Shown piece by piece: positions 13,702 through 30,657 of a DNA stretch of 64,000 nucleotides. Where the stretch lies: positions 660 through 64,659 of the IMG/VR virus record IMGVR_UViG_3300042296_000383, one strand, 5' to 3'. Positions within the stretch are counted from its first letter, which is position 1. Each line of letters begins with the position of its first letter. This DNA comes from a virus. Lineage: Duplodnaviria > Caudoviricetes. The position numbers and the translations under genes are program-made. Under the pieces are notes generated by a model. It did no database searches, was not told where the DNA came from, and saw only the letters and a program-made list of their open reading frames with translations.

Positions 13702-16700
13702 TTACTCATTAATGGAGTTTGCTACTAAGTAATTGATATACTTCTCCTTAGCTGTGCTTGTCTCGTCGGAAACAAATCCCATCTCGTTGTATGCAGACTC
13801 TCCCATGTCGTAGATGTAGTACTCACCGCCGAATATATTGCCCAATTCAATAGCCTTCTTCACCTTGAAGCCTTGGTTCATCGTGATGTTCTGGCCGATG
13901 CTGTACTCGTACCTTGACATAATCTCCTCCACCACCTTCACCTGCTCATCGACAGGCAGCCCCTTGGTCGCCACCTTGATCAGCGAGTGTGCGTACTTGT
14001 TCATAGCAACCTGCTTGGTCACCATGTCTTGGTTCCTTGATATAGCGTGGTCCTTGATACCGTTCAAGATTTCTTCAACCTCGGCGTCTCTCTCTGCTTT
14101 AGTCTTCTTGCCAACACTCACCTCGTAGTCTAGCTTGTCGATCACCTGCTTCGCTTCATACTCCTTGTCCTTAAACTCTTGGATAAAGTCCTTCATGCTA
14201 GGGGCAAAGTCGTCGGCCACGTTCTTACCGAACGCCCTGATGACGTCGACAGATATCACGTTGGTACCTAGGAGATGGCGCACCAGCTCGTCGTTCACGT
14301 CTCTCTTGTAAGAGTCGCCCTCGTACTGCTTGTCTACATCTGTAGCCTTGGCTATATCCTGAACAGACCTTATAAAGCCTGGCTTCGATCTATCAAAGAC
14401 ATACAGTCCAACGTTCGCCGCATACTGTAACAGGTCGTCGTTCACGCTAGATATCTGGCCACCTCTAGAGTCCCTGTTAGTCAGAACATCTCTAGCCACG
14501 CTGAGTACAGCCTCCTCGCCGAAGAACGGCTGGAGCAGCTCGCCCATCGCGGCGCCAGCCTTAGACTCGTCTGGTCTGAACTCGCCGGTGCTAGAGTATG
14601 CGTTGTATGCCTTGGTCATAAAGTTGAATGGGTTCATCCAGTCAAGGTCGACCATCGAGTATCCGCGTGGTGTCTTCTTTACAATAATCTTTGTGTTATT
14701 TCTAGAGTACTTAGGTGAACCCTCGTATATCACGCGCTCATCGTCGTCGTCCTCCTCTGGCGCACCAAATGCTGAGGCTATAAGCTGGGTAATAGTGTTA
14801 ACCGCAACAACAGCGGCGCCATACGACACCAATCTCTTCATGCCTATAGCTGCCTGTCTCTTGTTCTTGGAGGCCGCGCCTTCGTTTATATCCTTTACCG
14901 CGCGCAGTGGTATGGTCACCGATATACGCATAGCCTCGGCTACGAATGTAGGGAACGTGCCCAGAAGCGGTGATGCGGATAGCCTCTTGACGATCTCAGG
15001 TGCGTTGTCGTACACGATGTTGGTCTCCTTAAATCTAGACACCGCTATGTCGCGCTGCTCTGCCTTTGACTTGGAAGGGAACATGAACTTGACGTCGGCA
15101 AGCTCAGCCTCGTACTGCACCACACGGTGGATATTATCCATCATCTCGTACCAACTAATAGCAAAAGACTTTGTTTTTGACAGTACTGCCTTTACCCTGT
15201 TGGTCATGTTCTTGCTGTTCTCCATCGGGTCTATAGTGATATCAACAGCGCCGTAAGCCTCCTCGATAACCTTCCTCATAACAGAAGCGTCCACGCCGGA
15301 TCCTATAACGCCGGCCTCAATAAGGTCTAGGAGGTACTGGTCGTCCGCCTTACCAAGCTCCTTGAACCCGTACTTGAAACCCTTGGGCATCTTAGTAAAC
15401 AGGCTGTACATGTGACCGTTAGCCAACGGCATCACGATGTTGGAGTAGAAGTTTCTAACATTAGCTCGTGGTGATAAGATAGTCTGACCCATCTTCCATG
15501 CCGCAGCAATCTTACGAAGCACGTCAAACTTTACAGTGGTATCAACCCTGCCAAGCATATCCGCGATCTCCGGCGTAGTGTACATACCCATCAACGGGTC
15601 GTACTGGTTCTTGTTACCCTTGATCTGCTCACCGAACTCGCTCGACTTGGTGTCAAAGAATATCTTGTCCTTACCCATAGCCGCAACGCCAGTCAAGAAC
15701 TTCTTGTTCTCGGCGAAGTGTATCATGTTGGCCATGGTGTTGTAGAAGTTCGTCATCGGGTCTGTGTACTCCCCGAGGAACGCCCTCAAAACATCTGGTA
15801 TATCCTTACGCTTCTTGAGCATGTCGTCCATAGCCTTGCCCATCTTGCCGCCAGTCTTTATAAACTCTGCGAGGTCAAGTCCCGTGTCAACCTTGGCCAT
15901 AGCAGCTAGCATGCTGTCGATGCTGCCTAGGTCTAAGTCAGGGTACTGAGACTGCAAGAAATTAAACGCCGCGTCATACAGCGCCTGCATCTTTGGTGAC
16001 CTGTCCGCCTGACCAGCCGCCGTGCTCAAACCCTTAGGGAACATGGCCTTGTTCCAGCTTCCATTACTGAAGGCCGCGTAGCTACGGTTCATGTACACCC
16101 CGAGATTGTTGCTGATAGCGCCGTATAGGTTAGATGTCGGGTCGACATATGCCTGTACCTCGCCGGACATGTAGTCGATGTCCTGACGCATGCCGAGGAC
16201 AATGTCCTGAAGATCGTCTGATATTATATTGGAAGTGCTAGGCTGTACCTTACCCGTAAGTAGGCCGTTGATGTGGTTGATTGCCGCATCTATCTCCGCC
16301 TGCGTCTTCCCTTTAAATTCTTTTTTAAACTGTGCACTGAATCTCTTAGCCGTACCCTGCATCTCACGCATCCTCTTCTTGATAGAGTTCTCGGTCACCT
16401 TGTTCATGTCACGGATCTCGCTATGAAATCCTTTACCAAACCAGTAACTAAGAAATGATTTCACAGAGCTAAATCTCTGGGGTACTAGCCAGTTCTTTGA
16501 GTTGCCGACGTACCTTGATCCTATACCTGTTGCGTTGAAGTCCATCACGCCGCCAGCTATGGATACCTTAGCCGCCTCGGTGTCTAGGTTATCTAGCTGA
16601 CTGCTGGTGATTGTGGATATCGGGAAGTTACCCTCCAGATCCTTTGCTATAACTTCAGCCAAGTCCTTCGCCTTCATCTTCATGAAGTCACGGTCTGATC

Positions 16701-17949
16701 CAAAGAGTGATCCAAGGAAGTCGCGGATCTTCTGGATCATGTTCCTGTTCTTACGGGCAAAGCTCGCGTCCTGAATCATGTTGGCCATCGCCTGATTGAT
16801 GACGTCCTCCATCTCAGTGAACCTGTTGGTGGCCTGCACCTCGTCTATGTAAGACTTGTTCTCTGGCTTCATGATCTCAGCCTTGAACGCCTTGTATATG
16901 GCAGGGTCAACCTTCTCTGCTATCTTCAACCATAGCGAAGACATCGCCGCTAGGGGTGTGCTGCTATTCATTGACGCAGGGTTGATGTATATGTTACCCG
17001 ACTCTATGACCGCGATGACGTTGTCGAACGTGTCGTACACATTAACCGCGTCAGGGTTAGATGCCGCCGCAGTATACTGCGCCTGGTTAACCGAGATTGA
17101 TAGGTCTGGGAATTTCTTTGACATCATATCAAACACCACACCCGACGCTCCCGCGCTTGAGGATGATCCCCTGCTTGACTTGGTCTTTATCTTTCTGTTC
17201 TGCTTGAGTGCTGTGTACTCTGGGTTGCTGAACACTACCGTGTTGCCGACAACCTTCTCTATAAGTATAGGCTTCTGTGGCTTGATAGACTCGGCACGTA
17301 ATGCCTTGCCGCTTCTTAGCTTCCAGTCAGCCACGACCATCTCAAATCCTTTGTCTGCCGCCACCTTGCCTACCCATCCGACCTGCTCGTTGAAGTCGAA
17401 CGATCTTGTAGGGTGCGCCTTCCTGAACTCCTTCTCTGCCTTTGGTAAAAGGTTTAGCGGGTCCTCGTTGAACGGGTACACCTTGTCCTTCGGCACGAGC
17501 ACCGCGTGCTTGAAGCCTCCGGTGAATGACTCTGCTATGTCCGGGTCGGTGTAGTACATGCTCGCCTTCATCGTGCGAGACGCCTCGTCCCTTCCTGTTG
17601 CCCTGTTCTTTCCTAAGAACTTAGGGTCTATCTTCTTTTTAGTAAGGTCCTGGTCGCTGTAGTGGTAGAACACATAGTTCCCCTTGCCATCCTCGACCAT
17701 CATGTTGTTCTTCTTGGTACCGAACACGTGGTTCTTGCTCGACTTAGCCTTGATAGGCGGGAGAGAAGACTTCTTAGGCGCGGCCTCCGTGACCGGCTGA
17801 GACTTTAACATCTCTGGCATCTCGCCTTTCATCTTGCTAGGGTCTAACACCCCGGCAGATATAAGGTTGACAACCTCGCCGTTGTGCAGCATGGTCGCAA
17901 ACTTTTCGAACGAGTGCTCCTCGCCTTTGTACTTTACCTTACAAGCCAT
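13702..17949 (-). CDS. Giant polyvalent, probably ejected virion protein C (1415 aa)
   Basis: N-terminal Cys module; possible ADP-ribosyltransferase-like segment (YVFYHYS); degenerate zincin-like segment; long helical C-terminal part. Confidence 0.7.
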   Translation of the reverse strand: MACKVKYKGEEHSFEKFATMLHNGEVVNLISAGVLDPSKMKGEMPEMLKSQPVTEAAPKKSSLPPIKAKSSKNHVFGTKKNNMMVEDGKGNYVFYHYSDQDLTKKKIDPKFLGKNRATGRDEASRTMKASMYYTDPDIAESFTGGFKHAVLVPKDKVYPFNEDPLNLLPKAEKEFRKAHPTRSFDFNEQVGWVGKVAADKGFEMVVADWKLRSGKALRAESIKPQKPILIEKVVGNTVVFSNPEYTALKQNRKIKTKSSRGSSSSAGASGVVFDMMSKKFPDLSISVNQAQYTAAASNPDAVNVYDTFDNVIAVIESGNIYINPASMNSSTPLAAMSSLWLKIAEKVDPAIYKAFKAEIMKPENKSYIDEVQATNRFTEMEDVINQAMANMIQDASFARKNRNMIQKIRDFLGSLFGSDRDFMKMKAKDLAEVIAKDLEGNFPISTITSSQLDNLDTEAAKVSIAGGVMDFNATGIGSRYVGNSKNWLVPQRFSSVKSFLSYWFGKGFHSEIRDMNKVTENSIKKRMREMQGTAKRFSAQFKKEFKGKTQAEIDAAINHINGLLTGKVQPSTSNIISDDLQDIVLGMRQDIDYMSGEVQAYVDPTSNLYGAISNNLGVYMNRSYAAFSNGSWNKAMFPKGLSTAAGQADRSPKMQALYDAAFNFLQSQYPDLDLGSIDSMLAAMAKVDTGLDLAEFIKTGGKMGKAMDDMLKKRKDIPDVLRAFLGEYTDPMTNFYNTMANMIHFAENKKFLTGVAAMGKDKIFFDTKSSEFGEQIKGNKNQYDPLMGMYTTPEIADMLGRVDTTVKFDVLRKIAAAWKMGQTILSPRANVRNFYSNIVMPLANGHMYSLFTKMPKGFKYGFKELGKADDQYLLDLIEAGVIGSGVDASVMRKVIEEAYGAVDITIDPMENSKNMTNRVKAVLSKTKSFAISWYEMMDNIHRVVQYEAELADVKFMFPSKSKAEQRDIAVSRFKETNIVYDNAPEIVKRLSASPLLGTFPTFVAEAMRISVTIPLRAVKDINEGAASKNKRQAAIGMKRLVSYGAAVVAVNTITQLIASAFGAPEEDDDDERVIYEGSPKYSRNNTKIIVKKTPRGYSMVDLDWMNPFNFMTKAYNAYSSTGEFRPDESKAGAAMGELLQPFFGEEAVLSVARDVLTNRDSRGGQISSVNDDLLQYAANVGLYVFDRSKPGFIRSVQDIAKATDVDKQYEGDSYKRDVNDELVRHLLGTNVISVDVIRAFGKNVADDFAPSMKDFIQEFKDKEYEAKQVIDKLDYEVSVGKKTKAERDAEVEEILNGIKDHAISRNQDMVTKQVAMNKYAHSLIKVATKGLPVDEQVKVVEEIMSRYEYSIGQNITMNQGFKVKKAIELGNIFGGEYYIYDMGESAYNEMGFVSDETSTAKEKYINYLVANSINE

Positions 17950-17952
17950 GTA

Positions 17953-18456
17953 TTATCCGAATAGGTTTTCTTCCAACATAAGTAACTCAAACTTGCTGCC
18001 GGTGTTCACACCGAGCAACTTGTTTATCATGTCGCTGTACTCAGCAACCGCCTCCTTCTGTTTAACTCTATAGTCCTGCAGGAAATCAAAGACGCACAGG
18101 TCGCCGATCTTAAATATCTTGGCGCTGGTGTCCTCGTAATCCTCGTACAGTGCGTACTCGATATCATAAGCCTTGCCTATGATGTCTGTCAATCCCATGA
18201 ACATTAGGGTAGGCTTCTCGATAACCGGCAAGTCTGGGATCACGTTCCAGTCCACGAGGTAGTCCTCGATCTTCTTGGCGTGAGCCAACTCGTCCGCGCT
18301 CTCCTTGGCAAAGAACTCGGCGGCCTTCATGAAGCCCACGTTCTTGCACCAGTTAGATGCTGATCGGTAGAAGTAGTAGGCTTTGAACTCGTCGCTTAGC
18401 CTTGGTAGTAGGAGACTGATGACCTCCTCTGGTAGTTGTACTGGGGTTGGTAGCAT
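17953..18456 (-). CDS. Ferritin-like protein
   Basis: DEFKAYYFY...FFAKESADELAHAKKI...IEYAL...QKE ferroxidase-centre pattern. Confidence 0.85.
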   Translation of the reverse strand: MLPTPVQLPEEVISLLLPRLSDEFKAYYFYRSASNWCKNVGFMKAAEFFAKESADELAHAKKIEDYLVDWNVIPDLPVIEKPTLMFMGLTDIIGKAYDIEYALYEDYEDTSAKIFKIGDLCVFDFLQDYRVKQKEAVAEYSDMINKLLGVNTGSKFELLMLEENLFG

Positions 18457-18463
18457 ATCTTTT

Positions 18464-20929
18464 TTATATTGGACACTGGTCGTTTTTAGACGCCAGCCCT
18501 TTGTCTTCTAATTGTTTGTAAATGTACGACATATTATCAATTATATATTTAGCGGACGGGCTGTCTGCTAATATATTTTTCAGGTCCTCGTTAGCCTTAC
18601 GCTTCTTTGCTCCCCCTTCTGCCGCCTTCATCTTGTTGTACCCCTTCTCGTACTGCTTGAACTTATCCTCCACGAGGGATTGTTGTCCTGCTTTATCATT
18701 GTTTTTGACATAGGCTTCTGCTTGTTTTTTTGACATATAAGCATAGTCTGCACCAGCATCTTCGTTCCACTCAGATTCAAACCCAAAATTATTTGTTAAA
18801 TTATTTAAAAGATTTTTATTTGTAACTTCTAACCTGATTTGTTCCAAATCACTCTTAACAAAATCTCTAATCATACCGTCTATCAACTTCTTAGATAGTC
18901 CTTTATTTCTTTCGGATTTGTCTACTGCCATATCTGCCTTGTATTCAAAATCACTATCTTCCAAAGTTAAAGCAGCAACAACTTTTCCTTTTTCAACTAT
19001 AACCAATCTTGGTTCCCCATAGGTAATTACGTTAGAAGAAACTAAATCTTTTGCTTCTTTGTAGTATTGCGATTTTTTATCTATGATCTCCACGTCTACC
19101 TTATCGGGTATAATCTGGCTAGCATCCTGCGTATCTGTACCCGCTTGGGTACCTTTCAGCATGCCCTCAATATCGGGTAGCTTACCCATAGAGAGATCCT
19201 CTGCAATAGAGGCAAGCTGCTCGGGCGTGAAGTTGATAGGGTTCTTACCGTCCGATCCCGTCTTTATATTCTCATAAGAGTCGAGATCAAATAAAGACTC
19301 CTGGCCTGCAAGCTTACCGAACTCTAGCGCCACGTCGCGGTGCTCTCTCGGGATCACGATGTTCAGATCGTATGACACCTCTGGGCGGTCCGGGAATTTG
19401 TATAGCCCTATCTTGAAGATGTCGCTGGAGATGTTGCCCTCGTTTTGTTTTAAGAAATCATACAGCCCCTCTGCGGTAACCTGTCCCTGTCCAACGTTCA
19501 CCGAGGTGGCCGGGACAACAAGCCCACCATCCTCGTACACTGTACCGTCAAGGTTGAGCGTCGCACCGTCCTCACTAGTCGCCGCCTTGATCTTATCAAT
19601 TGTCTCGGCAACGTTGCCAGAGAACTGCTCTGGACTTGCGGACACACGGCTCTTTGTTTTTATACCTGCTTTAATAAATGGCACTTGCCCGTGACCAGCC
19701 TTACCTAATGCAGATCTCTCTTCCATCTCTGATAGAGGTGTGCCTTTAGAGTCTGTCATAAAATCTAAAAAGTTCAGCCTGTCCTTAAGCATGTGTACTT
19801 TAACCCGCTGACCATCCTGTGTTTTCATAACGCCAGCGTAAGCAATGTGACGCCTTTCGCTAGGATCTTTAGACGACTCATCTTCTAGTTTTAACTTAGA
19901 AGGAATTTCAATAACCGCGTAAGCAGATTGAGACGGCACTTCAGAAATGAAACCCTCTTCTTGATTCTTACCAAAGCTGTCTATTATATCCTCTTTATTT
20001 TTAAGAGGGAATCCCAATTTATTACCTAACGATTCAAAGTTTATAAGATTTCCGTTTGATTTTTTATCAAATATATTCCTTATCAAGTTTGTAACAACTT
20101 GCTTTCTCTTTTCAAAAGATGAAAACTCAGCTTTCATGAACAAATCTTTAATCGATTTGTGCATATCTTTTCCGCTGATGTTCATTGGAAATAAATCCTT
20201 ACCAGTGTATCCACTTGTTTTAACAGCGCTTGACATCGCGTTCCTAAAAACGGATAACGGAATATCCCCGTCTTCCACCATGTAAGCTATTGTGTCTACA
20301 GTTGCAATCATTCCATCAACACTGCTGAGAACCTTCCTGTTAGACCCCTTGCTAACAACCACATACGCAGGAGATCCGTTCTTATCGATGGCATCATTTA
20401 TTTGTTTGATTATACTTCTGGCAATTTGAGGGGTGGATGCCCAAAAAGTACCGTCGTCATTAAATTTAACAGCGAAGTATATTCCGCCATTACCCTGAAG
20501 CACAACTCTGTCCTTGCTTTCTTTTGGCTGTTTAGTTTTCTCGTCGTAAACTATTTCTTTACCATAGGATAAATCGCCTACCATTTTATTGTCGGGAACC
20601 ATCGTAAAAACATTATCAGACCCAGCAAATGAAAACACATCAGCGTTATCTACAATGTAACCCTCTTCCCTTAACTTATCTAACTTAGTTTTACCTTGCT
20701 CATCGGTTAGATCAGCAAATAAGTTTACATTAAACTTACCGCCTACAGAGGATTTTGCTTTAAAAGTTTTTACAGTATTAACTACCTCCCTTCCTTCCTG
20801 CGCCTCAACCTTTGGAGTTTGGTCATACTCGGCAAGTATATTCCTGTACTCACCGCCCGCAAGCAAGGCCATGAACTCTTCTTTAGTGTAGGTCTTGTTG
20901 TTGTATATGTACTTACATCCCTTCGGCAT
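18464..20929 (-). CDS. Polyvalent protein B (821 aa) with C-terminal GNAT acetyltransferase
   Basis: MAVDKSERNKGLSKKLI motif A and LEV...FGF; Cys modules at both termini. Confidence 0.7.
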   Translation of the reverse strand: MPKGCKYIYNNKTYTKEEFMALLAGGEYRNILAEYDQTPKVEAQEGREVVNTVKTFKAKSSVGGKFNVNLFADLTDEQGKTKLDKLREEGYIVDNADVFSFAGSDNVFTMVPDNKMVGDLSYGKEIVYDEKTKQPKESKDRVVLQGNGGIYFAVKFNDDGTFWASTPQIARSIIKQINDAIDKNGSPAYVVVSKGSNRKVLSSVDGMIATVDTIAYMVEDGDIPLSVFRNAMSSAVKTSGYTGKDLFPMNISGKDMHKSIKDLFMKAEFSSFEKRKQVVTNLIRNIFDKKSNGNLINFESLGNKLGFPLKNKEDIIDSFGKNQEEGFISEVPSQSAYAVIEIPSKLKLEDESSKDPSERRHIAYAGVMKTQDGQRVKVHMLKDRLNFLDFMTDSKGTPLSEMEERSALGKAGHGQVPFIKAGIKTKSRVSASPEQFSGNVAETIDKIKAATSEDGATLNLDGTVYEDGGLVVPATSVNVGQGQVTAEGLYDFLKQNEGNISSDIFKIGLYKFPDRPEVSYDLNIVIPREHRDVALEFGKLAGQESLFDLDSYENIKTGSDGKNPINFTPEQLASIAEDLSMGKLPDIEGMLKGTQAGTDTQDASQIIPDKVDVEIIDKKSQYYKEAKDLVSSNVITYGEPRLVIVEKGKVVAALTLEDSDFEYKADMAVDKSERNKGLSKKLIDGMIRDFVKSDLEQIRLEVTNKNLLNNLTNNFGFESEWNEDAGADYAYMSKKQAEAYVKNNDKAGQQSLVEDKFKQYEKGYNKMKAAEGGAKKRKANEDLKNILADSPSAKYIIDNMSYIYKQLEDKGLASKNDQCPI

Positions 20930-20941
20930 ACTTGTATCTTT

Positions 20942-23900
20942 TTAGAGTTCGCAATTTACTTTTAATTTCCCTTCCTTCACCATAGCCCTCTCAATTTTAT
21001 CAAAGTTATCCATGATAAAGTCTAGGTCAGGGTTGGTCGCCGCGATCTGGTCGCGTAACCTGCCCGCCATGATCCTGTCGTCAACGCTCATAGCTGATGC
21101 CTGTGCCGCGTCGACGGCTGCTATCTGTGATGCAGACTTTCTAGACTGCTCCCTAACCTTGGCTCTGCTAACCGGCTTTGACTTTGCCAACTCCTTGGCG
21201 CGTTCCTTTGCCAATCTCTTGCCTGCCTGTAGGTCGATAGCTCTGCCGGCAGCTAGTCCAGACGCCATCGCGTTGATGAACTCTACCACGTCCTTCTTTG
21301 TGGCGCGGTCGCTGAACACGTTCATGCCGGTCACCGACTGGAACACGCTGTTCATTATGTCCTTGAATTTGTCGACAAGGGTGGTCGGAAGTTCAAGCTC
21401 TTTATCCGTCACCGCAAGCTGTGCGGTAAGCTCTGTTATGAACTCCTCGGGAGATGATTCTTCGTTGTAGCTTTCTTCTGCCCACTTCTTCAGTCTGTCG
21501 ATATTAGATCCCTTAAACATCTCAAGGATCTTGTCCCTAAACTTAATGTAAACCTCTGGGTCTTGGCCGAACACCTCGAGCAATACGTTGTGCACAAACT
21601 CGTGCGGTGCTGTGGCAGCGTCAGCGTTCTCCATGTTGAGGTATATACCGTTCACGTTCCCATCCTCGTCGTAAGCGAACGCCCCGTTCTCCCTTGGATC
21701 AAAGTCTTTGTTCCTGCCCTGAGCCACTAATGCGTCATGCATCTCTCTTGCTGTCTCGAACACAAACACTGGTGTGTCCTTGCTAAAAGTTTTTCTGAAT
21801 GCGCGTGCCGCCTTGTCTAGATATTCGAGCGTTGCCATTCCCGGCTTTCCCTTGTATTTATTTTTAAGTTCAGTCCTGCGAGATGGCGTATACTCACCCG
21901 GTCTAGTAGTCGTCGTCTCTACTACAATTTGCTGAGCTGGAGCTAAAGTTAAAGTTGTGGCTGGCTGAGACGCCTGCTCCATAGCCTCCTTCTCATCACG
22001 CACTATACGGACAGCCTCCTCTGGGGTGGCGCCTGACTGCACAAAGGCTGTAGCCGTGTCGAGGTCGTCGCCCTCAAGCGTGTCGTCAAACTCTACCACA
22101 GATGCCATGGCGTCATCGTATGCCGCCGCGTTGTCCGTCTCCTCCTCTATCGTGATGGCGGGTGCGCCGTCGAAGTCTACTTCTTGCGTGCCTTGAACCA
22201 CTCCACCTGTCGTAGCCGCTTCTGTGCCTGTTCCTTGGTTAGATTGGTCTTGGATAGGGGCTTGTTGTCCTCCGACACCACCTGGTACCCCTTGCTTGTT
22301 TTTCGTATCATCTGTCTTTAAATTTGGTTGTTCTACATTAAACTCTTTGCTTTCATACTTGAGGCCCATGTTACCGCTGAGGTTTTCGTCCATAATAGAC
22401 AGGGTGTCGCCGTTCGGTAGCTTCATGTTGGCTACGTTGTTCTGGTCAGGCGCCCATGATGGGTTGCTCTCTGTGTTAACGAACTCGGCATTAGAGTCGA
22501 TGTCCTCCTGAGATCCTACAACCACAATACCCTTGCGGCCTGCCCTGTTGTTGGTTCCCTTTGGGACAAACACGTAGTTACCTTCGGGTATAATGTCACC
22601 GACGTTGTCGACCATCTTACCATCAGACATCTTCATCGTGCCCTTCATCCCGTTGTAAGCTACATCTATTCCTTCTAAGGCTACTGTCCTTACTGGGCTG
22701 GATACTCGCTCATTTAGTACTTTATTTTCTTCTACAGAAAGAGCATCGGCTACGGTTTCAGTAATAGCCGCCTTATTTCCTCTTGTTAGAATCGGCAAGT
22801 CAATTTCAACCGTTCCATTCCTCCAATAAATATTTGAACTACTAAGACCTAAAGACTCCATATATGGGGTTAGTGCTTGTCTTACTATGTCAAACTCTTG
22901 GTTATTTTTAACTTCAATAACATCAAAATCCCCCGCTTTTACATCAATCCCTAACTCATTTACTATCGCGTCACCGTTAATAGCAACTCTATTTGTTTTT
23001 AATTTACCATTTTCATCATATTGCAAGTCGTACCCTCTACTTAATTGTTGTTCCCAAACTCTTAGTCCGTCAGTAGATATGCTAGTTTTTTCAGTATATT
23101 CGTGTCCTTCGGGAAGTCTTGCTTGAACTTCTGAAATCATTGTTTTGAAATTACCCTTATTCCTAGATTGATTTTCAAACTTTGAACTCCATTTATTTGT
23201 TGGCTTTCCATCTTCGTATAATCTATAAAACCCAACAAAATCGTGGTCTGAAACACCACTTGTTACAACATCAACAACACCCGTGTTAGGGTTTGAAAAC
23301 TCAACCACATCAATACCGTTTACAATATTATGATTTGATATGACGGAGTTTATGCCGCTACCACCTAATTCATTAGCAAAAACACCTACACCCTCAAACA
23401 AAGTAGGATTAAGCATTTGAGCCATAAAGTCGCGTTGCTCAACGGTATTGTTTTCGTTATTAATTATTTCGTTGCCTACAACCACTTCATTAACAACGCC
23501 ATTCTCAACTACAGCTCCCTCAGCTGACTCCTGAGTTGCGGTCTCCTTAATAATCTTATCCTCCTCGTATATAGACATCACCTCCTTGTCGATGTTGTCG
23601 ATATCTTCCTTGTCAAGGGGAAGCAACCCTGTCTCCTTGCGTGCGTCTACGATACTCTTTTTTAATTGGAGTAGGTTAAACACCCTGTCCTTGTTGTCCC
23701 CAGTAAGCTCTGCATATGACGGTATATTGTTTAGCTCCTTGGCTAGATTAGTAAGCTCTCCGAGATCCTTCATCTCCTCTACCGTGGCACCAGAGTTTGC
23801 CCAATCCACCTGAATATCGGCGCCGTTCTCCCCCATGTTTCTTAAGGTCGCCTGCTCCTGTGGTGTTCTGTAATTGATACCAAACTTCATCACGCCCAAG

Positions 23901-26788
23901 AACGCAGGAGGAAGTGATCCGGAAAATCCACTCTCAACAACAGCGCTCATGTTCCACCCCGCGTTGAGTACCTCCCTTCCTACAACACCGTTGACAGCGT
24001 TGTTCACCGTTTGGTTCAATAACTCGGATGCGGACTCTTCCAGAAATTCTGGGGCAGCCTCGTTGAATATACTCTTAACGTACTGTGGAGCCCAAGCGGT
24101 CAGCCCATCCTCAAACCCTTTCTCTCTGATCAGGCTGCCTAAGCTATACCTCTGCGTAGGCTTGAAGACATCTATCTCGTTGAATAAGCTCTCGCCTATT
24201 CCATTCATGACGCCCACTATGTTAGCTACCACGCCAGCTTCTTGAGTGCTCATGCCGCTCTTTAGTGCCTGCCTGTAGGCGTCGCCTTGACCCATAAGGT
24301 AACCCTGCATAAAGCCGGAGGTGACCTGAGCCGCCTTCATCATCTTCGCTCCGCCGCTCAATCCCTTCACGGCAAGGCCGCCCACGCCACCAAACAATAT
24401 GCTTGTCGCGTAAGCACCAAAAGCCTCAGCCGTCTTATTCATGAAATTAAAGGCTGAGCTACCCTCTGTTATGTCAGTGCCTCCCTTTGATAGCCTAGTA
24501 TTCACGTCAGTGCTCCAGTCGTATAAGCTCTCAGCAAAAGCGTCCGCGCCACCTAACGCCTCAAAGGTTACCTTTGGAGCCTGAGCTATACTAAAAATTG
24601 AAGTCGCTAGTGCCGTTCCCATGGTGTCAAACAATGCACCTGCCTTCTCCCCGTAAGTCCCTTCCTTTGCTATCCTGTTTCTTTCTGCCTTTGATTTCTC
24701 GTAGGCATCCTTTTCTATTTTAGATTTTAAATAGTCCTTATCTATAAACTCGTACGCCAGCTTAGACTGACCAAGGGAAGTGTAGGTATTATTTAAACTG
24801 TTTAGCTTGTCTTCGGTAACGCCTGTGGTCTGCTGTATCTTATCATAATCTTTTGTCAGCGTGTTGTACTGCTCGTAAAGCACTTGAAGTTTCTTACTGT
24901 TCACTCCCGGTATAACGTTACCGTTCTCGTCGAATATAGAAGAGTACCTTGACTGGATCTCTTTAGCTTTCTCTGATGCTATGTTGTACTGATCAATAAG
25001 TTCTTGAACCTTTACCGCCTCGGTCGGATTAAGGTCCTGCCTCATCGATCCGTCCTGCGCCATGAATGGTTTGAGTTGCGCCTCAATAGCTTGTAGCCCT
25101 TGATTCACAGGAGTCATCTCGTCCTTGTACTTGTTGTACTTGACTATGTTCTCGTCTCCAGAAATGTTCAACAGCTTTGACTGGTCCTTGATCTGCTTCT
25201 CCACATTCTTCATGTCGTATAGCGTACGCTGACCGTCGAGCTGGAATGTTCTCATGTCCATGCTAGACTCAATATCACGAGCCGCCTTTAAATCACTAAG
25301 CTGTCTAAACTGTAGCGCCTCTTTTGTAAAAGAACTTGCGAACTCTTCCTCCTCAAATGACAAAGGCTGGCCGTTGTTTCTCTTGTAATCTATCTCGTCC
25401 ATTCGACTCTTGTACTGAGAATATCTTGACGGGTTAGTCCCGTTAAGGTACATCATAAAGTCGCTCTCTAATATTCTGAACGCCCTGTCAACCTTGCCCT
25501 CTGCTCTTAGCTCAGATATAAGACCACCTCCCTTCTTCTCCGACTCAAGCAATAGCTCGTCGAGGTTTATATTTTTAAATGCATTGGGCGCATACTTTTG
25601 GTATTCGGCAACCTCCTGCATTTTTTTAGAGTGCATGTCACGCATAGCCTGAACAGACATGCCCCTAACTACTGGAGAGTCTGGGTTTAGATTTATTTCA
25701 GACGCCAGCTTAGACCTCTCCTGTATCTTTGCTATATCAAATTGAGAATACAAATCTTGAACGTCTACAAACTCTCCGGGTTTTTTAGGCGCATGATACA
25801 TGTCCTTACCAAAATCTGGTATGATTGTAGGTGAATAAGTACCCTCATTAATTTCTTTTAAACTTTTTTCAGCAAAATCTAATTCCTGTTTAGCTTCCGA
25901 CAAACGATCTTGTGCACCATCCTCACCAGCTTTCATCATAGACTCTGCAAGCGCAACCTTTTTTTCCGCTTCTGAAATCTTTTCCGAGAACACATACCTA
26001 CCTACCGCCTCTTGCTCAGGATCCATTCCTATTTTTCGCGCTTGACTTGGATCAATGTATGACATCTGCTTGTTAGCAAGTTCAAACATTTTTGAATACA
26101 TCTTATCTAGCTGATCCTTCTTTTGAAATAAAGGGATCTCGGACTCTTCAATCTTACGAATTTGAGATTGCAGCTTCATCAACTCCGGGTCGATAGAAGC
26201 TACCTTTGCAATTACATCACCTTTAACATTTTTTAATCCGTCAACTATTTTCTTATTCATCTCAAGGTACATGTCGCGCATTGACACTTTTGATCCTTGA
26301 CCATCGATAATTTCCGGCTGCTTCGTTACCTTGCTAGCACCTGTATTAGAAGAAGCGAAGTCTTTACTAGCACGGGCAACCGCCTGCTGAGACTTCTTTA
26401 ACTTTATTAGCTCCTGATTTTCTTGTGGAGTTAGAAAGTTACTGTTAGTCTTCAGCGCGCTCTCGTACTTAGACTGTAGTCGGTCGATCTCTTGCTGTAC
26501 AGGATCACTTGTTGCGCCACTCTTCTCTGAAGGCACGGGCTGCTGCGCTGATACTGCGCTTCCATCTTCCCCACCACTGCCCAAGGGTGAGGCGGTCTGC
26601 TTTCCCAAGCCTAGCAAAGCGGAGTAGTCATCAATACTGTCGGCGTACCCGTCCTTTTTAAACAGGCCGTAGCTGTAGTCAAGAGCTTTTTTATCTGTTG
26701 ATACTAGCGCCTTAAAATCATCAAGGCTACCATTATACCCGTCCTTGGTGAATAACCCGTGGGCATACTTTAACGCTTCTTCGTTCAT
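20942..26788 (-). CDS. Giant polyvalent protein A (1948 aa) with zincin metallopeptidase
   Basis: GIYLN...APHEFVH...EEF (HExxH); duplicated N-terminal motif ALxYxxGLFxKDGY; C-terminal Cys module. Confidence 0.75.
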   Translation of the reverse strand: MNEEALKYAHGLFTKDGYNGSLDDFKALVSTDKKALDYSYGLFKKDGYADSIDDYSALLGLGKQTASPLGSGGEDGSAVSAQQPVPSEKSGATSDPVQQEIDRLQSKYESALKTNSNFLTPQENQELIKLKKSQQAVARASKDFASSNTGASKVTKQPEIIDGQGSKVSMRDMYLEMNKKIVDGLKNVKGDVIAKVASIDPELMKLQSQIRKIEESEIPLFQKKDQLDKMYSKMFELANKQMSYIDPSQARKIGMDPEQEAVGRYVFSEKISEAEKKVALAESMMKAGEDGAQDRLSEAKQELDFAEKSLKEINEGTYSPTIIPDFGKDMYHAPKKPGEFVDVQDLYSQFDIAKIQERSKLASEINLNPDSPVVRGMSVQAMRDMHSKKMQEVAEYQKYAPNAFKNINLDELLLESEKKGGGLISELRAEGKVDRAFRILESDFMMYLNGTNPSRYSQYKSRMDEIDYKRNNGQPLSFEEEEFASSFTKEALQFRQLSDLKAARDIESSMDMRTFQLDGQRTLYDMKNVEKQIKDQSKLLNISGDENIVKYNKYKDEMTPVNQGLQAIEAQLKPFMAQDGSMRQDLNPTEAVKVQELIDQYNIASEKAKEIQSRYSSIFDENGNVIPGVNSKKLQVLYEQYNTLTKDYDKIQQTTGVTEDKLNSLNNTYTSLGQSKLAYEFIDKDYLKSKIEKDAYEKSKAERNRIAKEGTYGEKAGALFDTMGTALATSIFSIAQAPKVTFEALGGADAFAESLYDWSTDVNTRLSKGGTDITEGSSAFNFMNKTAEAFGAYATSILFGGVGGLAVKGLSGGAKMMKAAQVTSGFMQGYLMGQGDAYRQALKSGMSTQEAGVVANIVGVMNGIGESLFNEIDVFKPTQRYSLGSLIREKGFEDGLTAWAPQYVKSIFNEAAPEFLEESASELLNQTVNNAVNGVVGREVLNAGWNMSAVVESGFSGSLPPAFLGVMKFGINYRTPQEQATLRNMGENGADIQVDWANSGATVEEMKDLGELTNLAKELNNIPSYAELTGDNKDRVFNLLQLKKSIVDARKETGLLPLDKEDIDNIDKEVMSIYEEDKIIKETATQESAEGAVVENGVVNEVVVGNEIINNENNTVEQRDFMAQMLNPTLFEGVGVFANELGGSGINSVISNHNIVNGIDVVEFSNPNTGVVDVVTSGVSDHDFVGFYRLYEDGKPTNKWSSKFENQSRNKGNFKTMISEVQARLPEGHEYTEKTSISTDGLRVWEQQLSRGYDLQYDENGKLKTNRVAINGDAIVNELGIDVKAGDFDVIEVKNNQEFDIVRQALTPYMESLGLSSSNIYWRNGTVEIDLPILTRGNKAAITETVADALSVEENKVLNERVSSPVRTVALEGIDVAYNGMKGTMKMSDGKMVDNVGDIIPEGNYVFVPKGTNNRAGRKGIVVVGSQEDIDSNAEFVNTESNPSWAPDQNNVANMKLPNGDTLSIMDENLSGNMGLKYESKEFNVEQPNLKTDDTKNKQGVPGGVGGQQAPIQDQSNQGTGTEAATTGGVVQGTQEVDFDGAPAITIEEETDNAAAYDDAMASVVEFDDTLEGDDLDTATAFVQSGATPEEAVRIVRDEKEAMEQASQPATTLTLAPAQQIVVETTTTRPGEYTPSRRTELKNKYKGKPGMATLEYLDKAARAFRKTFSKDTPVFVFETAREMHDALVAQGRNKDFDPRENGAFAYDEDGNVNGIYLNMENADAATAPHEFVHNVLLEVFGQDPEVYIKFRDKILEMFKGSNIDRLKKWAEESYNEESSPEEFITELTAQLAVTDKELELPTTLVDKFKDIMNSVFQSVTGMNVFSDRATKKDVVEFINAMASGLAAGRAIDLQAGKRLAKERAKELAKSKPVSRAKVREQSRKSASQIAAVDAAQASAMSVDDRIMAGRLRDQIAATNPDLDFIMDNFDKIERAMVKEGKLKVNCEL

Positions 26789-26797
26789 TATAACCTG

Positions 26798-28177
26798 TTA
26801 TTTTTGTTTATTAAACGTTGATGCTCCACCAGTGGACGCGCCAAATGATGTGATCCACTTATCAAACTCTTGTTGAACAGACGCAGGGAACGCGACCTTG
26901 TTCTCTGGGGACATCGGCATGTATATGTCCTCGGCCTCGTGAAACTCCACAACGTACTGGCCGTTGTCTTCTTTCAACGACGCAGCAACGTCGCCTGCTT
27001 GCTTCTGACTTTCTAAAAATGCCGAAGCTCCTGACTCATCCTCTTTTTTAAATACTCTCTGGGTAGTCCTTGAGCTGAACTTCTTTGCCTTGATCCTTCC
27101 AAACACTTGCCCGTTAGGACCCTCTGCCGCGTAGAACCCTATCGGCACAACCTGTTCAGCCTGTCCCTTGTCTGGTTTCAAGGTGATAGGTGTGTAGTCC
27201 ACCTTCTTCTTGCCCACTATATTTTTAATACCCATAAAGTTCTTTGGAGAAACCTTAAGCCCCGGGTACGCGCCCTTATCGGTGATGTCAGCAAAGTCCC
27301 ATGTGGTGCCTTCCTCTGTGCCCTGACCGTAGTTAACGTAGGTGCTGCTTCCTTCTTTACCAGACTCTTTATTAGTTACCTGTCCAAATCCCATAGCCAC
27401 CTCGGTGTAGTAGTCGACAAACTTATCTGGGCTATCCCAAGCCCCTGCCTTGACCCCTTCCGCGTACACGTCGTCCCACTGGTTATCCTGTGGGTTGAGC
27501 AAGGTCTTCTCTATAAGGCCCTTTACATCACCACGGTTGAGCGCTCCCGTTTCTTGAAACGTACCGTTACCTGTCGCTACTTTGGTTATCTCTTCCTTTA
27601 ATCCAAGATCCTTGATATACTTAACAGGATCAAACAGCTCCTGGTAAGGGTTGTTGTTGTAGAAATAATTCTTTCTATCCTTCAATGTAGTCTGCTGCGC
27701 GTACCCCTTGTTGAACTCCACGAGGGCGTCCGGGTTGTACTTGGTAGGGTCGGCGGCCACCTTCGCTGTCATCTGCGAGTAGTTATCTTCTAGCTGCTTG
27801 CCCTCGTTTGATAGCATCTTCAGCTTCATTATGATCGGGGCTGCCTGCGCCTTGAACTCCGCGCTGTCGGGGTCTAGCCCGCGTGCTGCGGCGTCCGCCA
27901 TGATCTCGCTGAACGCCTCGACCTGCTCTGTGATCTCCGCCTGATTGGAGTAGTACACCTCAGCCGGCACGATATCCTCGAACTTGAACTTGGCCCACTT
28001 AGCCTTGTTCTCCAGCGCATCCTTCTTGGCGAGCGCGCGTTGCTGCTGCTCAAGGGTGATGAGGTTAGTCATGAACGCGTTCGGGTCGAACGTGCTCTGG
28101 TCTAACACCACCGCGTATCCGCTATTCCTTTCTGGGGCTATCCCTATGGCAGGGGCGTTTGGTATTCCTAGTTCCAT
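26798..28177 (-). CDS. Putative internal virion/ejection protein (459 aa)
   Basis: Position between the tail stabiliser and the giant proteins; helical N-terminal half. Confidence 0.55.
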   Translation of the reverse strand: MELGIPNAPAIGIAPERNSGYAVVLDQSTFDPNAFMTNLITLEQQQRALAKKDALENKAKWAKFKFEDIVPAEVYYSNQAEITEQVEAFSEIMADAAARGLDPDSAEFKAQAAPIIMKLKMLSNEGKQLEDNYSQMTAKVAADPTKYNPDALVEFNKGYAQQTTLKDRKNYFYNNNPYQELFDPVKYIKDLGLKEEITKVATGNGTFQETGALNRGDVKGLIEKTLLNPQDNQWDDVYAEGVKAGAWDSPDKFVDYYTEVAMGFGQVTNKESGKEGSSTYVNYGQGTEEGTTWDFADITDKGAYPGLKVSPKNFMGIKNIVGKKKVDYTPITLKPDKGQAEQVVPIGFYAAEGPNGQVFGRIKAKKFSSRTTQRVFKKEDESGASAFLESQKQAGDVAASLKEDNGQYVVEFHEAEDIYMPMSPENKVAFPASVQQEFDKWITSFGASTGGASTFNKQK

Positions 28178-30657
28178 TATTTATTACCTCCAATATAATT
28201 ACCTTCGTCGTCTACTATATCCGCGTACAAGTCGGGGTACTTTTCTTTCAACGCTTTAAGTTTAGGTTTCATTTTATTCTTAACACCTTGTAAACTACCC
28301 ACAGGATGAGTCGCCATTTCTAACCATTTCTTTTCGTCTTCACTTAGGTCTTCTTTGAGTAAAAATTCAATCGCATTCTTTTGGTCTTTAGGTGACAAGC
28401 TCGTTCCTCTCTTCTCGTTTAAATCATCAATATCTTTGAAATATCCGTCTTGGTCTATTAAATCACCCAACATAGGTATAGCAAACCACGCAGGGCTATG
28501 TGCAGACGTTGATGAATAACATTTACCTGCTTTACAATCTTCGGAGTTATTATAGTTATTTACAGCAGCACGCCAATCCACAACGCCATTTACCATAGGT
28601 AGGGGAACTTCTTTAGTGTATGGTTCAAAGCGTCTAGTTTGTCCCGGCGTGTTGCCTACCATCTGTTCTCCAATGTAAGTCATTGTCACCTCTCCATTTG
28701 CTGACCCCGAAGTATTCTCGGCAGATTTGTTTGTATTAAAGTATTCAGGAAACTCTTTGGCTAAAGTGTTTGTGTTTGTGTTTTTAGAACTCATTCTATC
28801 ATTACCAACTAATAACCTTCCCAACTCCTCTGTTGTGAAGCCTATCTTTTTTAACTTATCTAAAGCCTTTGTGTCTAACGAACCGTTTCTTTTCCAATTA
28901 CTATGATAAACACTTCCTAAATCTTCTAATACCCGAATAGGGTCTTCGGGATGTACAAGATTCCCATACTTGTCTGTATAAGCAATTTCACTTTCGCTTG
29001 CCTTTTTAGCTACTGTTGGGTCATAGTCTTGTACCGTCCATTTACCTTTAGAGTCTTTTACCCACTCGTACTTTTCATTACCATTATCATCTCTTTCTAT
29101 AGTCAACCCTGAAAAGTCGCGCAAAAGAAGAGGGTCGACAGGACCTTCTGATTTAAACTTGTCCATGTTTACTATCAAGTCGTGAAGCTCTTGGTATGCT
29201 AACTCTCTATTTTTCATAGGGTCTGTTGAGACAGCGTTTTGCTCCGCAAACTTTTGAAGTGATGGTGAAGACTTAATGATAGAGGCTGGCAGACGAGAGA
29301 TCATAAGACTTGTCGCCTCAAGCGGCGTGATCTTTTTAATCTCTGGTGCTGGAGGGACTGCTGGCGCTGTAGCCTCTGGGGCTACAACAGGCTCAGTGCT
29401 CGGAGCTGCCGCTGCTGCCGCCGCCACATCCTGTGCCTGCATCTGATCCTTGGTGTAATCACCAGCTTGTATAGCGCCGGCCTGAAAAGCCTGCATAGTC
29501 TGCTGTGCCTGAGCAAAGCCCGGGCTTACAATAGCTGGAGCGGGAGCTGCTGGAGCGGGTGCGGGAGCTGCTGGCGCTGGCTGAGACGGGATCACAGCCG
29601 TAGGCTGAACTTGCGCCGGTGTTGGCATAGCCGTAGGCTGAACTGGTGCTGTATTTGAAACGACAGGAGGCGTGACATTTAGTGCACCTACACCCCCGCT
29701 GTTAGTCGTTCCAACCATAAAAGAATTTCTGCCAGTTATCTGACTTACAACATTATTGAAAGGCTGCTGGTTAATCAACGGCGACTCGGTCAAGCCGTCG
29801 GTAACCCCCGGTATATTGTTAAACATGATGCCGGTATTCTCTCCGGTATTACTTATCACGTTAGCGTCTCCCATCATCGGGACAAATTGATTTGGCTTGC
29901 TTGTAATTCCCAAATTCGGAACAAACGAGCTGTATCTGCTGATCGAGTTGTTGAACTGTGGCTGGCCGTACTTATTAAACCCTTGAAAATTAGGATTAAG
30001 TTTACTTATAAAATTAGGATCAGCGTTTGTTGGACTTGTTGCTTGGGCTACCTTGTTAGTGCCCGTGCCCGTGCCCGTATCAAACATACCAAGACTCTTC
30101 ATCATGAGAGCGTTCGCGCCCACACCGGCAAGACCCTTGACCGCCTGATAGGCGTTAATCTTCCCAGCCTCCGCAAGAGCAGACGCTGCCTGTGCCTCCT
30201 CGGCATAGGGCTGGTACACGTTAGTCATCCACTGCTTCTCCTCGTAGGCGCCCTTGTTCATCAAGGCCTGTGATGCCATGGCGTTGCGCTGCTGGTAGTC
30301 CTGAGCTGCCGCTAACGCCATCTGATTCTGCGCGCCCATCTGGCTTCCGTAAACACCGGCCATTGCGGCTAGTGCCTCAGGACCCGACGTCGCGTTCTGG
30401 TTAATATTGTATAAGGCGTTCGATGACGCCTGGTCTATAGACTGCTGATAGGCGTCCTGCCCGGGCATCTGGAACGAGCTGGCCGCGTTGACCATTCTCT
30501 GCGTGCCCTGGAGTACACTCTGTGGAATCTCGTATGTTGGGCGCTCCAAACCGTCGAGCATCTGACGAGCTTTTCTGCCCTGTATGACACCCTGAACCCC
30601 TTGCACCACTGCGGGTACAGCAGACATTGCTGTTATTGCTGCTAATCCTACTGGCAT
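28177..30657 (-). CDS. Putative ejection/pilot protein (826 aa) with Pro/Ala linker and AT-rich C-terminal domain
   Basis: Hydrophobic N-terminus and A/Q/G-rich segment typical of podovirus pilot proteins. Confidence 0.55.
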   Translation of the reverse strand: MPVGLAAITAMSAVPAVVQGVQGVIQGRKARQMLDGLERPTYEIPQSVLQGTQRMVNAASSFQMPGQDAYQQSIDQASSNALYNINQNATSGPEALAAMAGVYGSQMGAQNQMALAAAQDYQQRNAMASQALMNKGAYEEKQWMTNVYQPYAEEAQAASALAEAGKINAYQAVKGLAGVGANALMMKSLGMFDTGTGTGTNKVAQATSPTNADPNFISKLNPNFQGFNKYGQPQFNNSISRYSSFVPNLGITSKPNQFVPMMGDANVISNTGENTGIMFNNIPGVTDGLTESPLINQQPFNNVVSQITGRNSFMVGTTNSGGVGALNVTPPVVSNTAPVQPTAMPTPAQVQPTAVIPSQPAPAAPAPAPAAPAPAIVSPGFAQAQQTMQAFQAGAIQAGDYTKDQMQAQDVAAAAAAAPSTEPVVAPEATAPAVPPAPEIKKITPLEATSLMISRLPASIIKSSPSLQKFAEQNAVSTDPMKNRELAYQELHDLIVNMDKFKSEGPVDPLLLRDFSGLTIERDDNGNEKYEWVKDSKGKWTVQDYDPTVAKKASESEIAYTDKYGNLVHPEDPIRVLEDLGSVYHSNWKRNGSLDTKALDKLKKIGFTTEELGRLLVGNDRMSSKNTNTNTLAKEFPEYFNTNKSAENTSGSANGEVTMTYIGEQMVGNTPGQTRRFEPYTKEVPLPMVNGVVDWRAAVNNYNNSEDCKAGKCYSSTSAHSPAWFAIPMLGDLIDQDGYFKDIDDLNEKRGTSLSPKDQKNAIEFLLKEDLSEDEKKWLEMATHPVGSLQGVKNKMKPKLKALKEKYPDLYADIVDDEGNYIGGNK

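Follow-up and report, generated by a model that had tools for sequence, protein, structure and literature searches.

The window analysed here is a stretch of 64,000 bases out of the 64,659 of the virus record IMGVR_UViG_3300042296_000383, which is assigned to the Caudoviricetes. Its minus strand encodes three giant proteins, A, B and C, whose genes are consecutive apart from one ferritin-like gene between B and C (Table 1). A previous reading of the DNA by a model without database searches (hereafter the sequence-only reading) gave sizes and coordinates for the three open reading frames (ORFs) that agree with ours. It proposed that A and B end in a shared C-terminal module (C-module), that B and C start with a shared N-terminal module (N-module), and that the two kinds of module pair, possibly by a disulfide, to link the proteins into an ordered chain.

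Table 1 Features of the A-B-C block, with positions in the 64,000-base window (aa, amino acids; Cys, cysteine; E, expectation value)
Feature	Position	Strand	Details
Gene A, 1948 aa	20942..26788	(-)	Sole Cys 1946 (..KVNCEL); HEFVH at residues 1729-1733
Gene B, 821 aa, middle unit with both modules	18464..20929	(-)	Only Cys 5 and 819 (MPKGCK.., ..NDQCPI); weak GNAT match at residues 637-719
Gene C, 1415 aa	13702..17949	(-)	Sole Cys 3 (MACK..); residues 512-1220 match the core conserved in giant virion proteins of podophages
C-terminal module of A, residues 1900-1948 (..NPDLDFIMDNFDKIERAMVKEGKLKVNCEL)	20945..21091	(-)	Cys1946 codon 20951-20953
N-terminal module of B, residues 1-39 (MPKGCKYIYNNKTYTKEEFMALLAGGEY..)	20813..20929	(-)	Cys5 codon 20915-20917; profile E 3.1e-13 among 1.84 billion representatives, B itself being in the profile
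C-terminal module of B, residues 772-821 (..SPSAKYIIDNMSYIYKQLEDKGLASKNDQCPI)	18467..18616	(-)	Cys819 codon 18473-18475
N-terminal module of C, residues 1-40 (MACKVKYKGEEHSFEKFATMLHNGEVVNL..)	17830..17949	(-)	Cys3 codon 17941-17943
Ferritin-like gene, 167 aa, 2 Cys, inserted at the B|C junction	17953..18456	(-)	Pfam Ferritin (PF00210), E 7.5e-20
Two upstream genes of the A-B-C block	26798..30657	(-)	826-aa protein with Gly/Ala/Val-rich N-terminus (MPVGLAAITAMSAVPAVVQGVQG..); 459-aa protein, no Cys

A, B and C together contain four Cys in 4184 aa, each located at most five residues from the chain end that faces the neighbouring protein. The other 62 non-nested ORFs of the window contain 174 Cys in 15,139 aa (1.15%), and about 48 Cys would be expected in the three proteins at that rate (Poisson P(≤4) = 3e-16). 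The count bears out the sequence-only reading, which had placed the only Cys of about 4200 aa at the module ends by eye. Since the Cys lie at the extreme ends, with 0-2 residues after the C-terminal Cys and 1-4 before the N-terminal Cys, a link between them would be unbranched.

The N-modules of B and C align without gaps with 9 of 29 residues identical (BLASTP E 1e-5 in a single comparison), in agreement with the proposed shared N-module. The shared C-module of A and B stood only in part. The pattern described for it is present in both proteins, and BLASTP produced no alignment between them at E ≤ 100. When a profile was built without A-type sequences, residues 1912-1942 of A were the top non-self match among the 543 ORFs of the window, at E 0.21. 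Taken by itself, the likeness between these two C-modules is therefore weak. The proposed arrangement, in which A has only the C-module, C only the N-module and B both, in gene order, was confirmed, except that the ferritin-like gene between B and C had been overlooked. A profile scan, with models that include the window's own copies, found neither module elsewhere in the window.

Both modules recur well beyond this phage. A profile of 10 N-modules was searched against 1.84 billion protein representatives at E ≤ 1e-3 and matched 174 clusters. Among the 150 listed, 141 match at the extreme N-terminus with a Cys at position 2-5, and the remaining nine are internal repeats or chance matches without that Cys. 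The N-module is about 35-40 aa long and consists of M-x(1-4)-C, a β-hairpin and a helix. Since the sequences are unrelated past residue ~35-40, the module is a discrete unit, and it is a real and wide family. The 135 new N-module proteins (111,100 aa) contain 26 internal Cys (0.023%), and 60 of the 69 proteins of at least 600 aa have none; about 31 of the 135 representatives also end in Cys. A C-module profile, built from 11 C-modules and applied at E ≤ 3.2e-5, matched 92 protein clusters. The C-module has a length of about 45 aa and consists of helices followed by G-x-L-K-x-x-C, with 0-2 residues after the Cys. In 90 tallied C-module proteins (75,209 aa, fragments included and one protein cut before its end), all 115 Cys are located at most six residues from the N-terminus or three from the C-terminus, and none is internal. 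No Pfam family exists for either module; two hints below the cut-off, Phage_XkdX for the N-module (E 0.09) and MCM4_WHD for one C-module (E 0.008), were rejected as assignments.

The N-module profile had no match in cellular genomes, an IMG/VR search with P0035 gave none, and GenBank phages had none with B or with the N-module of contig L034. The family includes a cultured phage, Leptolyngbya phage Lbo-JY46, in which the sole Cys of a 1552-aa protein is its last residue and the next gene encodes a 2748-aa protein that starts with MSNCVFSYNGKTYSEAEF and has its sole Cys at position 4. We found no published paper on Lbo-JY46. Small double-ended proteins of 139-421 aa (P0046, P0093-P0096, P0239 and L040 5033-6295) have a common core, NLTVPGGTNYTE..IKGHAQFSTDNGIGWFRSD..KTRRILEVQSD, which belongs to no Pfam family.

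The order of the modules along the genomes was analysed in loci that had been retrieved through one module only, from the N side or the C side; the metagenome scan from the N side contributed at least four loci, and near-identical contigs were merged to 26 distinct contigs. Since each locus was fetched by a single module, the state of the neighbouring gene is an independent observation. An upstream partner ending in Cys (at most five residues from its end) was found for 31 of the 33 giant genes with an N-terminal Cys. The sequence-only reading had suggested that C-module genes precede N-module genes across phages, and this is what the junctions show. Ten of the 31 paired genes are directly adjacent, 16 are paired across a ferritin-like gene (~165 aa) and five across a GIY-YIG homing-endonuclease-like gene. 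B is missing in L016, L017, L039 and L050, where an A-type gene is directly followed by a C-type gene, and several relatives have the order A-B-endonuclease-C. The GIY-YIG-like genes (218-246 aa) occupy the slot between the C-module and N-module genes in L019, L034, L035, L037 and L040. One relative, L019, has a B of only 139 aa (mini-B), flanked by two such genes.

B varies between its ends. All 12 full-length B homologues from metagenomes have exactly two Cys, at position 5 and at the third position from the end, in total lengths of 664-1009 aa, and 20-74% of B is covered, with 26-80% of the middle replaced. Proteins with B-type ends carry Kinase-PolyVal (E 5.8e-32), DUF7178, RadC, ART-PolyVal or GNAT domains. 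Judged by these homologues, B is a cassette with constant ends and an exchangeable effector middle, which fits the insertable unit that the sequence-only reading had seen in it. A search for longer proteins holding B's domains gave 28 matches, 27 of them new (78,581 aa). Eleven of the 27, up to 4015 aa long, lack Cys altogether and carry B's domains in their interior (residues 1435-2275 in one case). Another 14, of A type and 2108-2771 aa long, also include these domains, and their only Cys is located 1-2 residues from the C-terminus; the remaining two have one internal Cys. Since neither module was found at an internal junction in any of the 27, the Cys and the adaptors accompany breaks in the polypeptide and are missing from its continuous forms. 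Relatives without B and fused, continuous relatives, both considered in the sequence-only reading, therefore exist, and the continuous ones lack the junction Cys.

The virion context comes from protein C. Residues 512-1220 match PHROG 22602 (phrog_22602, 'virion structural protein') at E 1.9e-25, residues 602-1228 align with gp123 of Cellulophaga phage phi18:3, which is annotated as a virion protein from tandem mass spectrometry, and residues 564-1223 align with a giant protein of Pseudoalteromonas phage vB_Pun_Y3 (hereafter Y3). The identity of these two homologues to the C core is 24-26%. From this homology, A, B and C are probably packed in the head and injected. Like the proteins of the window, the giant proteins of phi18:3 (1935 aa) and Y3 (3421 and 1027 aa) have no internal Cys; unlike them, they have no terminal Cys either and no modules, and the protein is encoded by one giant gene in phi18:3 and by two adjacent genes in Y3. 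A matched no Pfam family at E ≤ 0.1 and no PHROG family at E ≤ 0.01. B has no Pfam or PHROG assignment beyond the weak GNAT match (PF00583, 21.2 bits for a cut-off of 20.7), and the Pfam scan of B and C at E ≤ 0.1 gave only GNAT and one chance-level family. Among GenBank phages, B has no relative and A has one 90-aa match only.

The closest known arrangement is that of the cyanopodophage A4 (Anabaena phage A-4L). According to the passages of the cryo-electron microscopy study on its pre-ejectosome (PNAS 2025, PMC12002296), gp27 and gp26 alternate in a ring that forms the outer layer, the gp27 C-terminal helix is inserted into gp26, and a disulfide connects gp27 Cys1715 with gp26 Cys5. In the A4 genome (KF356198), the gene of gp27 (1717 aa) is directly followed by that of gp26 (1114 aa), and Cys1715 and Cys5 are the sole Cys of each protein. 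A4 thus resembles the window in its adjacent giant ejection-protein genes, in the sole Cys of the upstream protein at the third position from the C-terminus and that of the downstream protein at position 5, and in a block layout with a Gly-rich-N-terminus protein farther upstream. It differs in having one junction and no three-protein chain with a double-ended middle unit. PDB chains of A4 were not among the profile matches at E ≤ 10. Since neither A, B and C nor the modules resemble the A4 proteins detectably in sequence, A4 is an analogue by position only.

A second comparison is with the polyvalent proteins, which are described in the main text of Iyer et al. 2017 (PMC5512222) as giant multi-domain proteins of phages and conjugative elements that adjoin virion genes and are thought to be packaged and delivered. 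Homologues with B's ends carry their domain types (Kinase-PolyVal, ART-PolyVal, RadC, GNAT and DUF7178), and the window itself showed only the weak GNAT match in B and the HEFVH motif in A. In that account, many domains are joined in one polypeptide and released by an embedded metallopeptidase, whereas in the window the array is split into genes with Cys-tipped adaptors. The words 'cysteine', 'disulfide' and 'split' have no occurrence in the main text of that paper.

We consider that A, B and C are probably internal virion ejection or effector proteins of the polyvalent kind, which would represent one giant Cys-free protein in three pieces whose breaks are joined end to end by disulfide bonds. 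Each break would be flanked by an adaptor pair, the C-module on the upstream protein and the N-module on the downstream protein. The adaptors would dock, probably with the final strand of the upstream protein pairing with the first hairpin of the downstream one, and docking would bring the two lone Cys together, so that a disulfide could form once the particle is in an oxidising medium. In the pre-ejectosome, the resulting A-S-S-B-S-S-C would behave like the one uninterrupted protein that related phages have, and the link may have a role in ordered ejection. No protease would be needed to separate the pieces, since the reducing cytoplasm of the host could do so. With all other Cys purged, wrong pairings would be prevented.

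Structure prediction bears on the docking step. The natural 139-aa mini-B was modelled by AlphaFold2 with a 13-row alignment at a mean predicted local distance difference test (pLDDT) of 55, with the ends at ~78. In this model, the N-module forms a hairpin (residues 3-7 and 10-12) and two helices, and the C-module forms a helix (118-131) and a last strand (134-138). Since the hairpin and the strand are the only strands in the model, they must pair with each other there, and this strand pairing can be taken as a weak hint. The model of full-length B (14 homologues; mean pLDDT 43.8, predicted template modelling score 0.26) was too poor for a fold search and agrees with the mini-B model only in the N-terminal hairpin and helix. 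A wide fold search with the mini-B model by VIA-align gave a best Z of 4.0 and none at 5; several winged-helix domains were found at Z 2.4-3.1, far too low to be meaningful, and together with the weak Pfam hints they suggest a winged-helix-like unit only vaguely and below any threshold. The complex of the last 60 aa of A and the first 45 aa of B, predicted with separate unpaired alignments (37 rows, 34 of them used, and 45 rows), scored 0.13 and 0.13, where the mark is 0.32, and is counted neither for nor against binding.

Several observations weigh against a disulfide-linked chain. Assembly takes place in a reducing cytoplasm, where a disulfide would have to form or survive. The virion association of the three proteins is drawn from the homology of the C core alone. 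The ferritin-like gene sits inside the B|C junction. The Y3 genome (L002 4020-17394) has no Cys at the break between its two adjacent giant proteins, so a break between giant proteins does not always carry the clasp. With the module profiles, A4 gp25-gp29 score below 0 bits, and BLASTP of A, B and C against them gives E ≥ 0.5. Some B-type proteins start unlike the N-module (MACPNINLD.., MHCTNISNQ.., MAKGCVYIPKTGKD..), with the Cys kept at position 3-5. Given the weak likeness of the C-modules of A and B and these unrelated N-terminal sequences, one single docking fold is not established. Finally, two of the 33 junctions (L018 and one of L037) are unpaired, and the N-module gene there follows a protein of 629-730 aa without a terminal Cys; L018 is a 96-kb record rated complete, and no C-module is present anywhere in it. 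The upstream proteins in these two contigs (L018 4808-7000 and L037 1630-3519) have CxxC and Cx4-6C motifs, and such a protein could be an alternative partner for the N-terminal Cys.

The unpaired junctions support another explanation, in which the modules are independent signals, each binding a common part of the virion (portal, core or DNA) for packaging or ejection, and the Cys have a different chemistry, for example metal binding or bonding to a third protein such as the CxxC protein. L018 and L037 have N-module genes without a C-terminal-Cys partner and the CxxC..Cx4-6C protein just upstream, the N-only proteins far outnumber the double-ended ones, and the first giant proteins carry a Cys-free S/T-[YF]-[ED]-[ED]-F motif similar to the N-module helix. 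We nevertheless regard this explanation as unlikely. Against it stand the 31 junctions that pair a C-terminal with an N-terminal Cys in gene order, the presence of exactly two modules of each kind in the window, and the joint disappearance of the Cys where the chain is continuous, and the equivalent pair in A4 is bonded to each other in the published structure.

The mosaic middles of the B homologues could also mean that the conserved ends are mainly DNA-level cassette boundaries, which provide homology for recombination or homing in effector swaps and in ferritin or endonuclease insertion, with the Cys being incidental. The shared ends around replaced middles, the GIY-YIG gene exactly at the junction in five contigs and the ferritin-like gene in 16 all suit this view. 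However, despite strong divergence of the modules, the Cys is conserved and so is its distance from the end, and the absence of internal Cys from the 75,209 aa of C-module proteins indicates selection on the protein and not on the DNA. The pattern is not explained at the DNA level alone, and as a replacement for the disulfide-linked chain this view is quite improbable. The mosaic middles and the insertions at the junctions make it likely that DNA-level cassette boundaries exist in addition to that chain. Genes split by free-standing homing endonucleases, whose halves reassociate, are a parallel to the five contigs with a GIY-YIG gene at the junction. The differences are that no endonuclease gene is present at the window's own junctions and that one adaptor pair is used again at several junctions and across hundreds of proteins, and not at one split enzyme.

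It is very improbable that the terminal Cys are nucleophiles for another covalent process, such as splicing-like thioester ligation or self-cleavage that trims the ends: the positions of the Cys (0-2 residues from the C-terminus and 1-4 after the start Met, so placed that they would be exposed if a short leader were removed) and the zincin-like HEFVH motif near the C-terminus of A suit it, whereas no intein or Hint family was found in A, B or C at E ≤ 0.1 in Pfam, the modules (35-50 aa) are far shorter than split inteins and have the Cys at the extreme chain end, that is, at their outer and not inner edge, and the A4 density, as described in the published passages, shows a disulfide and not a peptide bond.

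Returning to the disulfide-linked chain, a wider version of it can be put forward tentatively. The adaptors may be a general plug-in coupling, by which any two-ended effector cassette joins a disulfide-linked train that is packed on the portal, injected as an unbranched thread and undone not by a protease but by the reducing cytoplasm. Cassettes, ferritin genes and homing endonucleases would then enter at the DNA of the junctions. We hold this wider version to be possible and rather doubtful.

Read-through of the A stop codon into B was considered and rejected; both genes share one frame in the window and L007, but in L011 they overlap out of frame. In B (residues 56-61 and 423-428) and C (66-71 and 254-259), but not in A, an [IF]K[AT]KS[SR] motif is found at what look like domain borders. 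It was rejected as a general cleavage site after the N-module, because none of 101 representatives (≥150 aa) has it in the first 130 residues; the motif is therefore local to this clade.

The gene at the B|C junction encodes a protein that, by its Pfam match and its best solved relative, the bacterial non-haem ferritin 5c6f (E 3.4e-16), is a ferritin-like four-helix protein. A ferritin-like gene is located at the same C-module/N-module junction at 16 sites of divergent phages (the window, L007, L023-L033, L052, L053 and L056). E23, Y30, E56, H59, E100 and Q133 are invariant in nine phage copies. The position that we take, from the alignment with solved ferritins, to be the last ferroxidase ligand is Ala or Ser in the phage copies. 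Cys37 (in NWC) is common to the phage copies and the bacterial (Helicobacter-type) ferritin 5c6f, and Cys121 is phage-specific. A role of the ferritin-like protein as a two-Cys adaptor of the chain was rejected, since one of its Cys (NWC) is also present in 5c6f and junctions without the gene exist.

Other features of A and C concern their domains. A begins (26600-26788, minus strand) with AL.Y..GLF.KDGY..S.DD[FY].AL in two copies. In many related blocks (P0242, P0248, P0261, P0263 and phi18:3 gp122), the first giant protein has a similar Cys-free start with ..(S/T)[YF][ED][ED]F.., which resembles the N-module helix. The zincin-type HEFVH motif of A (21590-21604, minus strand) is located ~215 residues before the C-terminus. 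Residues 316-469 of C (16543-17004, minus strand) weakly resemble this zincin-like region (BLASTP E 0.035) and have AAMSS in place of the motif, so that they look like a degenerate copy of it. No Pfam peptidase family was found at E ≤ 1 on the HExxH part of A, and none on the matching region of C. A Cys-free stretch at residues 295-323 of C (16981-17067, minus strand; AASNPDAVNVYDTFDNVIAVIESGNIYIN) resembles the C-module of A (BLASTP E 0.002 in a single comparison) and runs directly into the zincin-like region. From this likeness, the C-module may derive from a linker preceding zincin-like domains. The layout of the two genes upstream of the block (826 and 459 aa) is that preceding the giant internal proteins in phi18:3, Y3 and A-4L, by synteny and N-terminus likeness only, with no family match.

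That two ejection proteins can be joined by a disulfide at their facing ends is known from one phage, A4, in the published passages. These passages (PMC12002296, its supplement apart) make no mention of Cys conservation, a module family, cassette exchange or continuous Cys-free relatives. Apart from the A4 paper, literature searches without supplements turned up no account of terminal-Cys adaptors on phage ejection or polyvalent proteins. We did not find in print the widespread adaptor family, a chain of three proteins whose double-ended middle unit is exchangeable, a connection with the fission of polyvalent proteins, or the ferritin and endonuclease insertions at the junctions.

The way in which podophages retain, order and release their giant injected proteins is poorly understood. 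The present data suggest that end-to-end disulfide linkage is not a curiosity and appears to be the rule of a large adaptor-ended family, tied to the breaks of a giant polyvalent protein, with anti-host effector domains being exchanged in a middle unit that has both ends. If true, this would give a simple reason for the Cys-free proteins, would add a redox step to infection, and would offer a handle for loading cargo into phage particles. If the coupling were general, a redox-switched cargo-loading device would be shared by hundreds of uncultured phages, whose hosts belong to at least two phyla, and could be used for loading chosen proteins into heads. The cultured Leptolyngbya phage Lbo-JY46 makes this idea directly testable.

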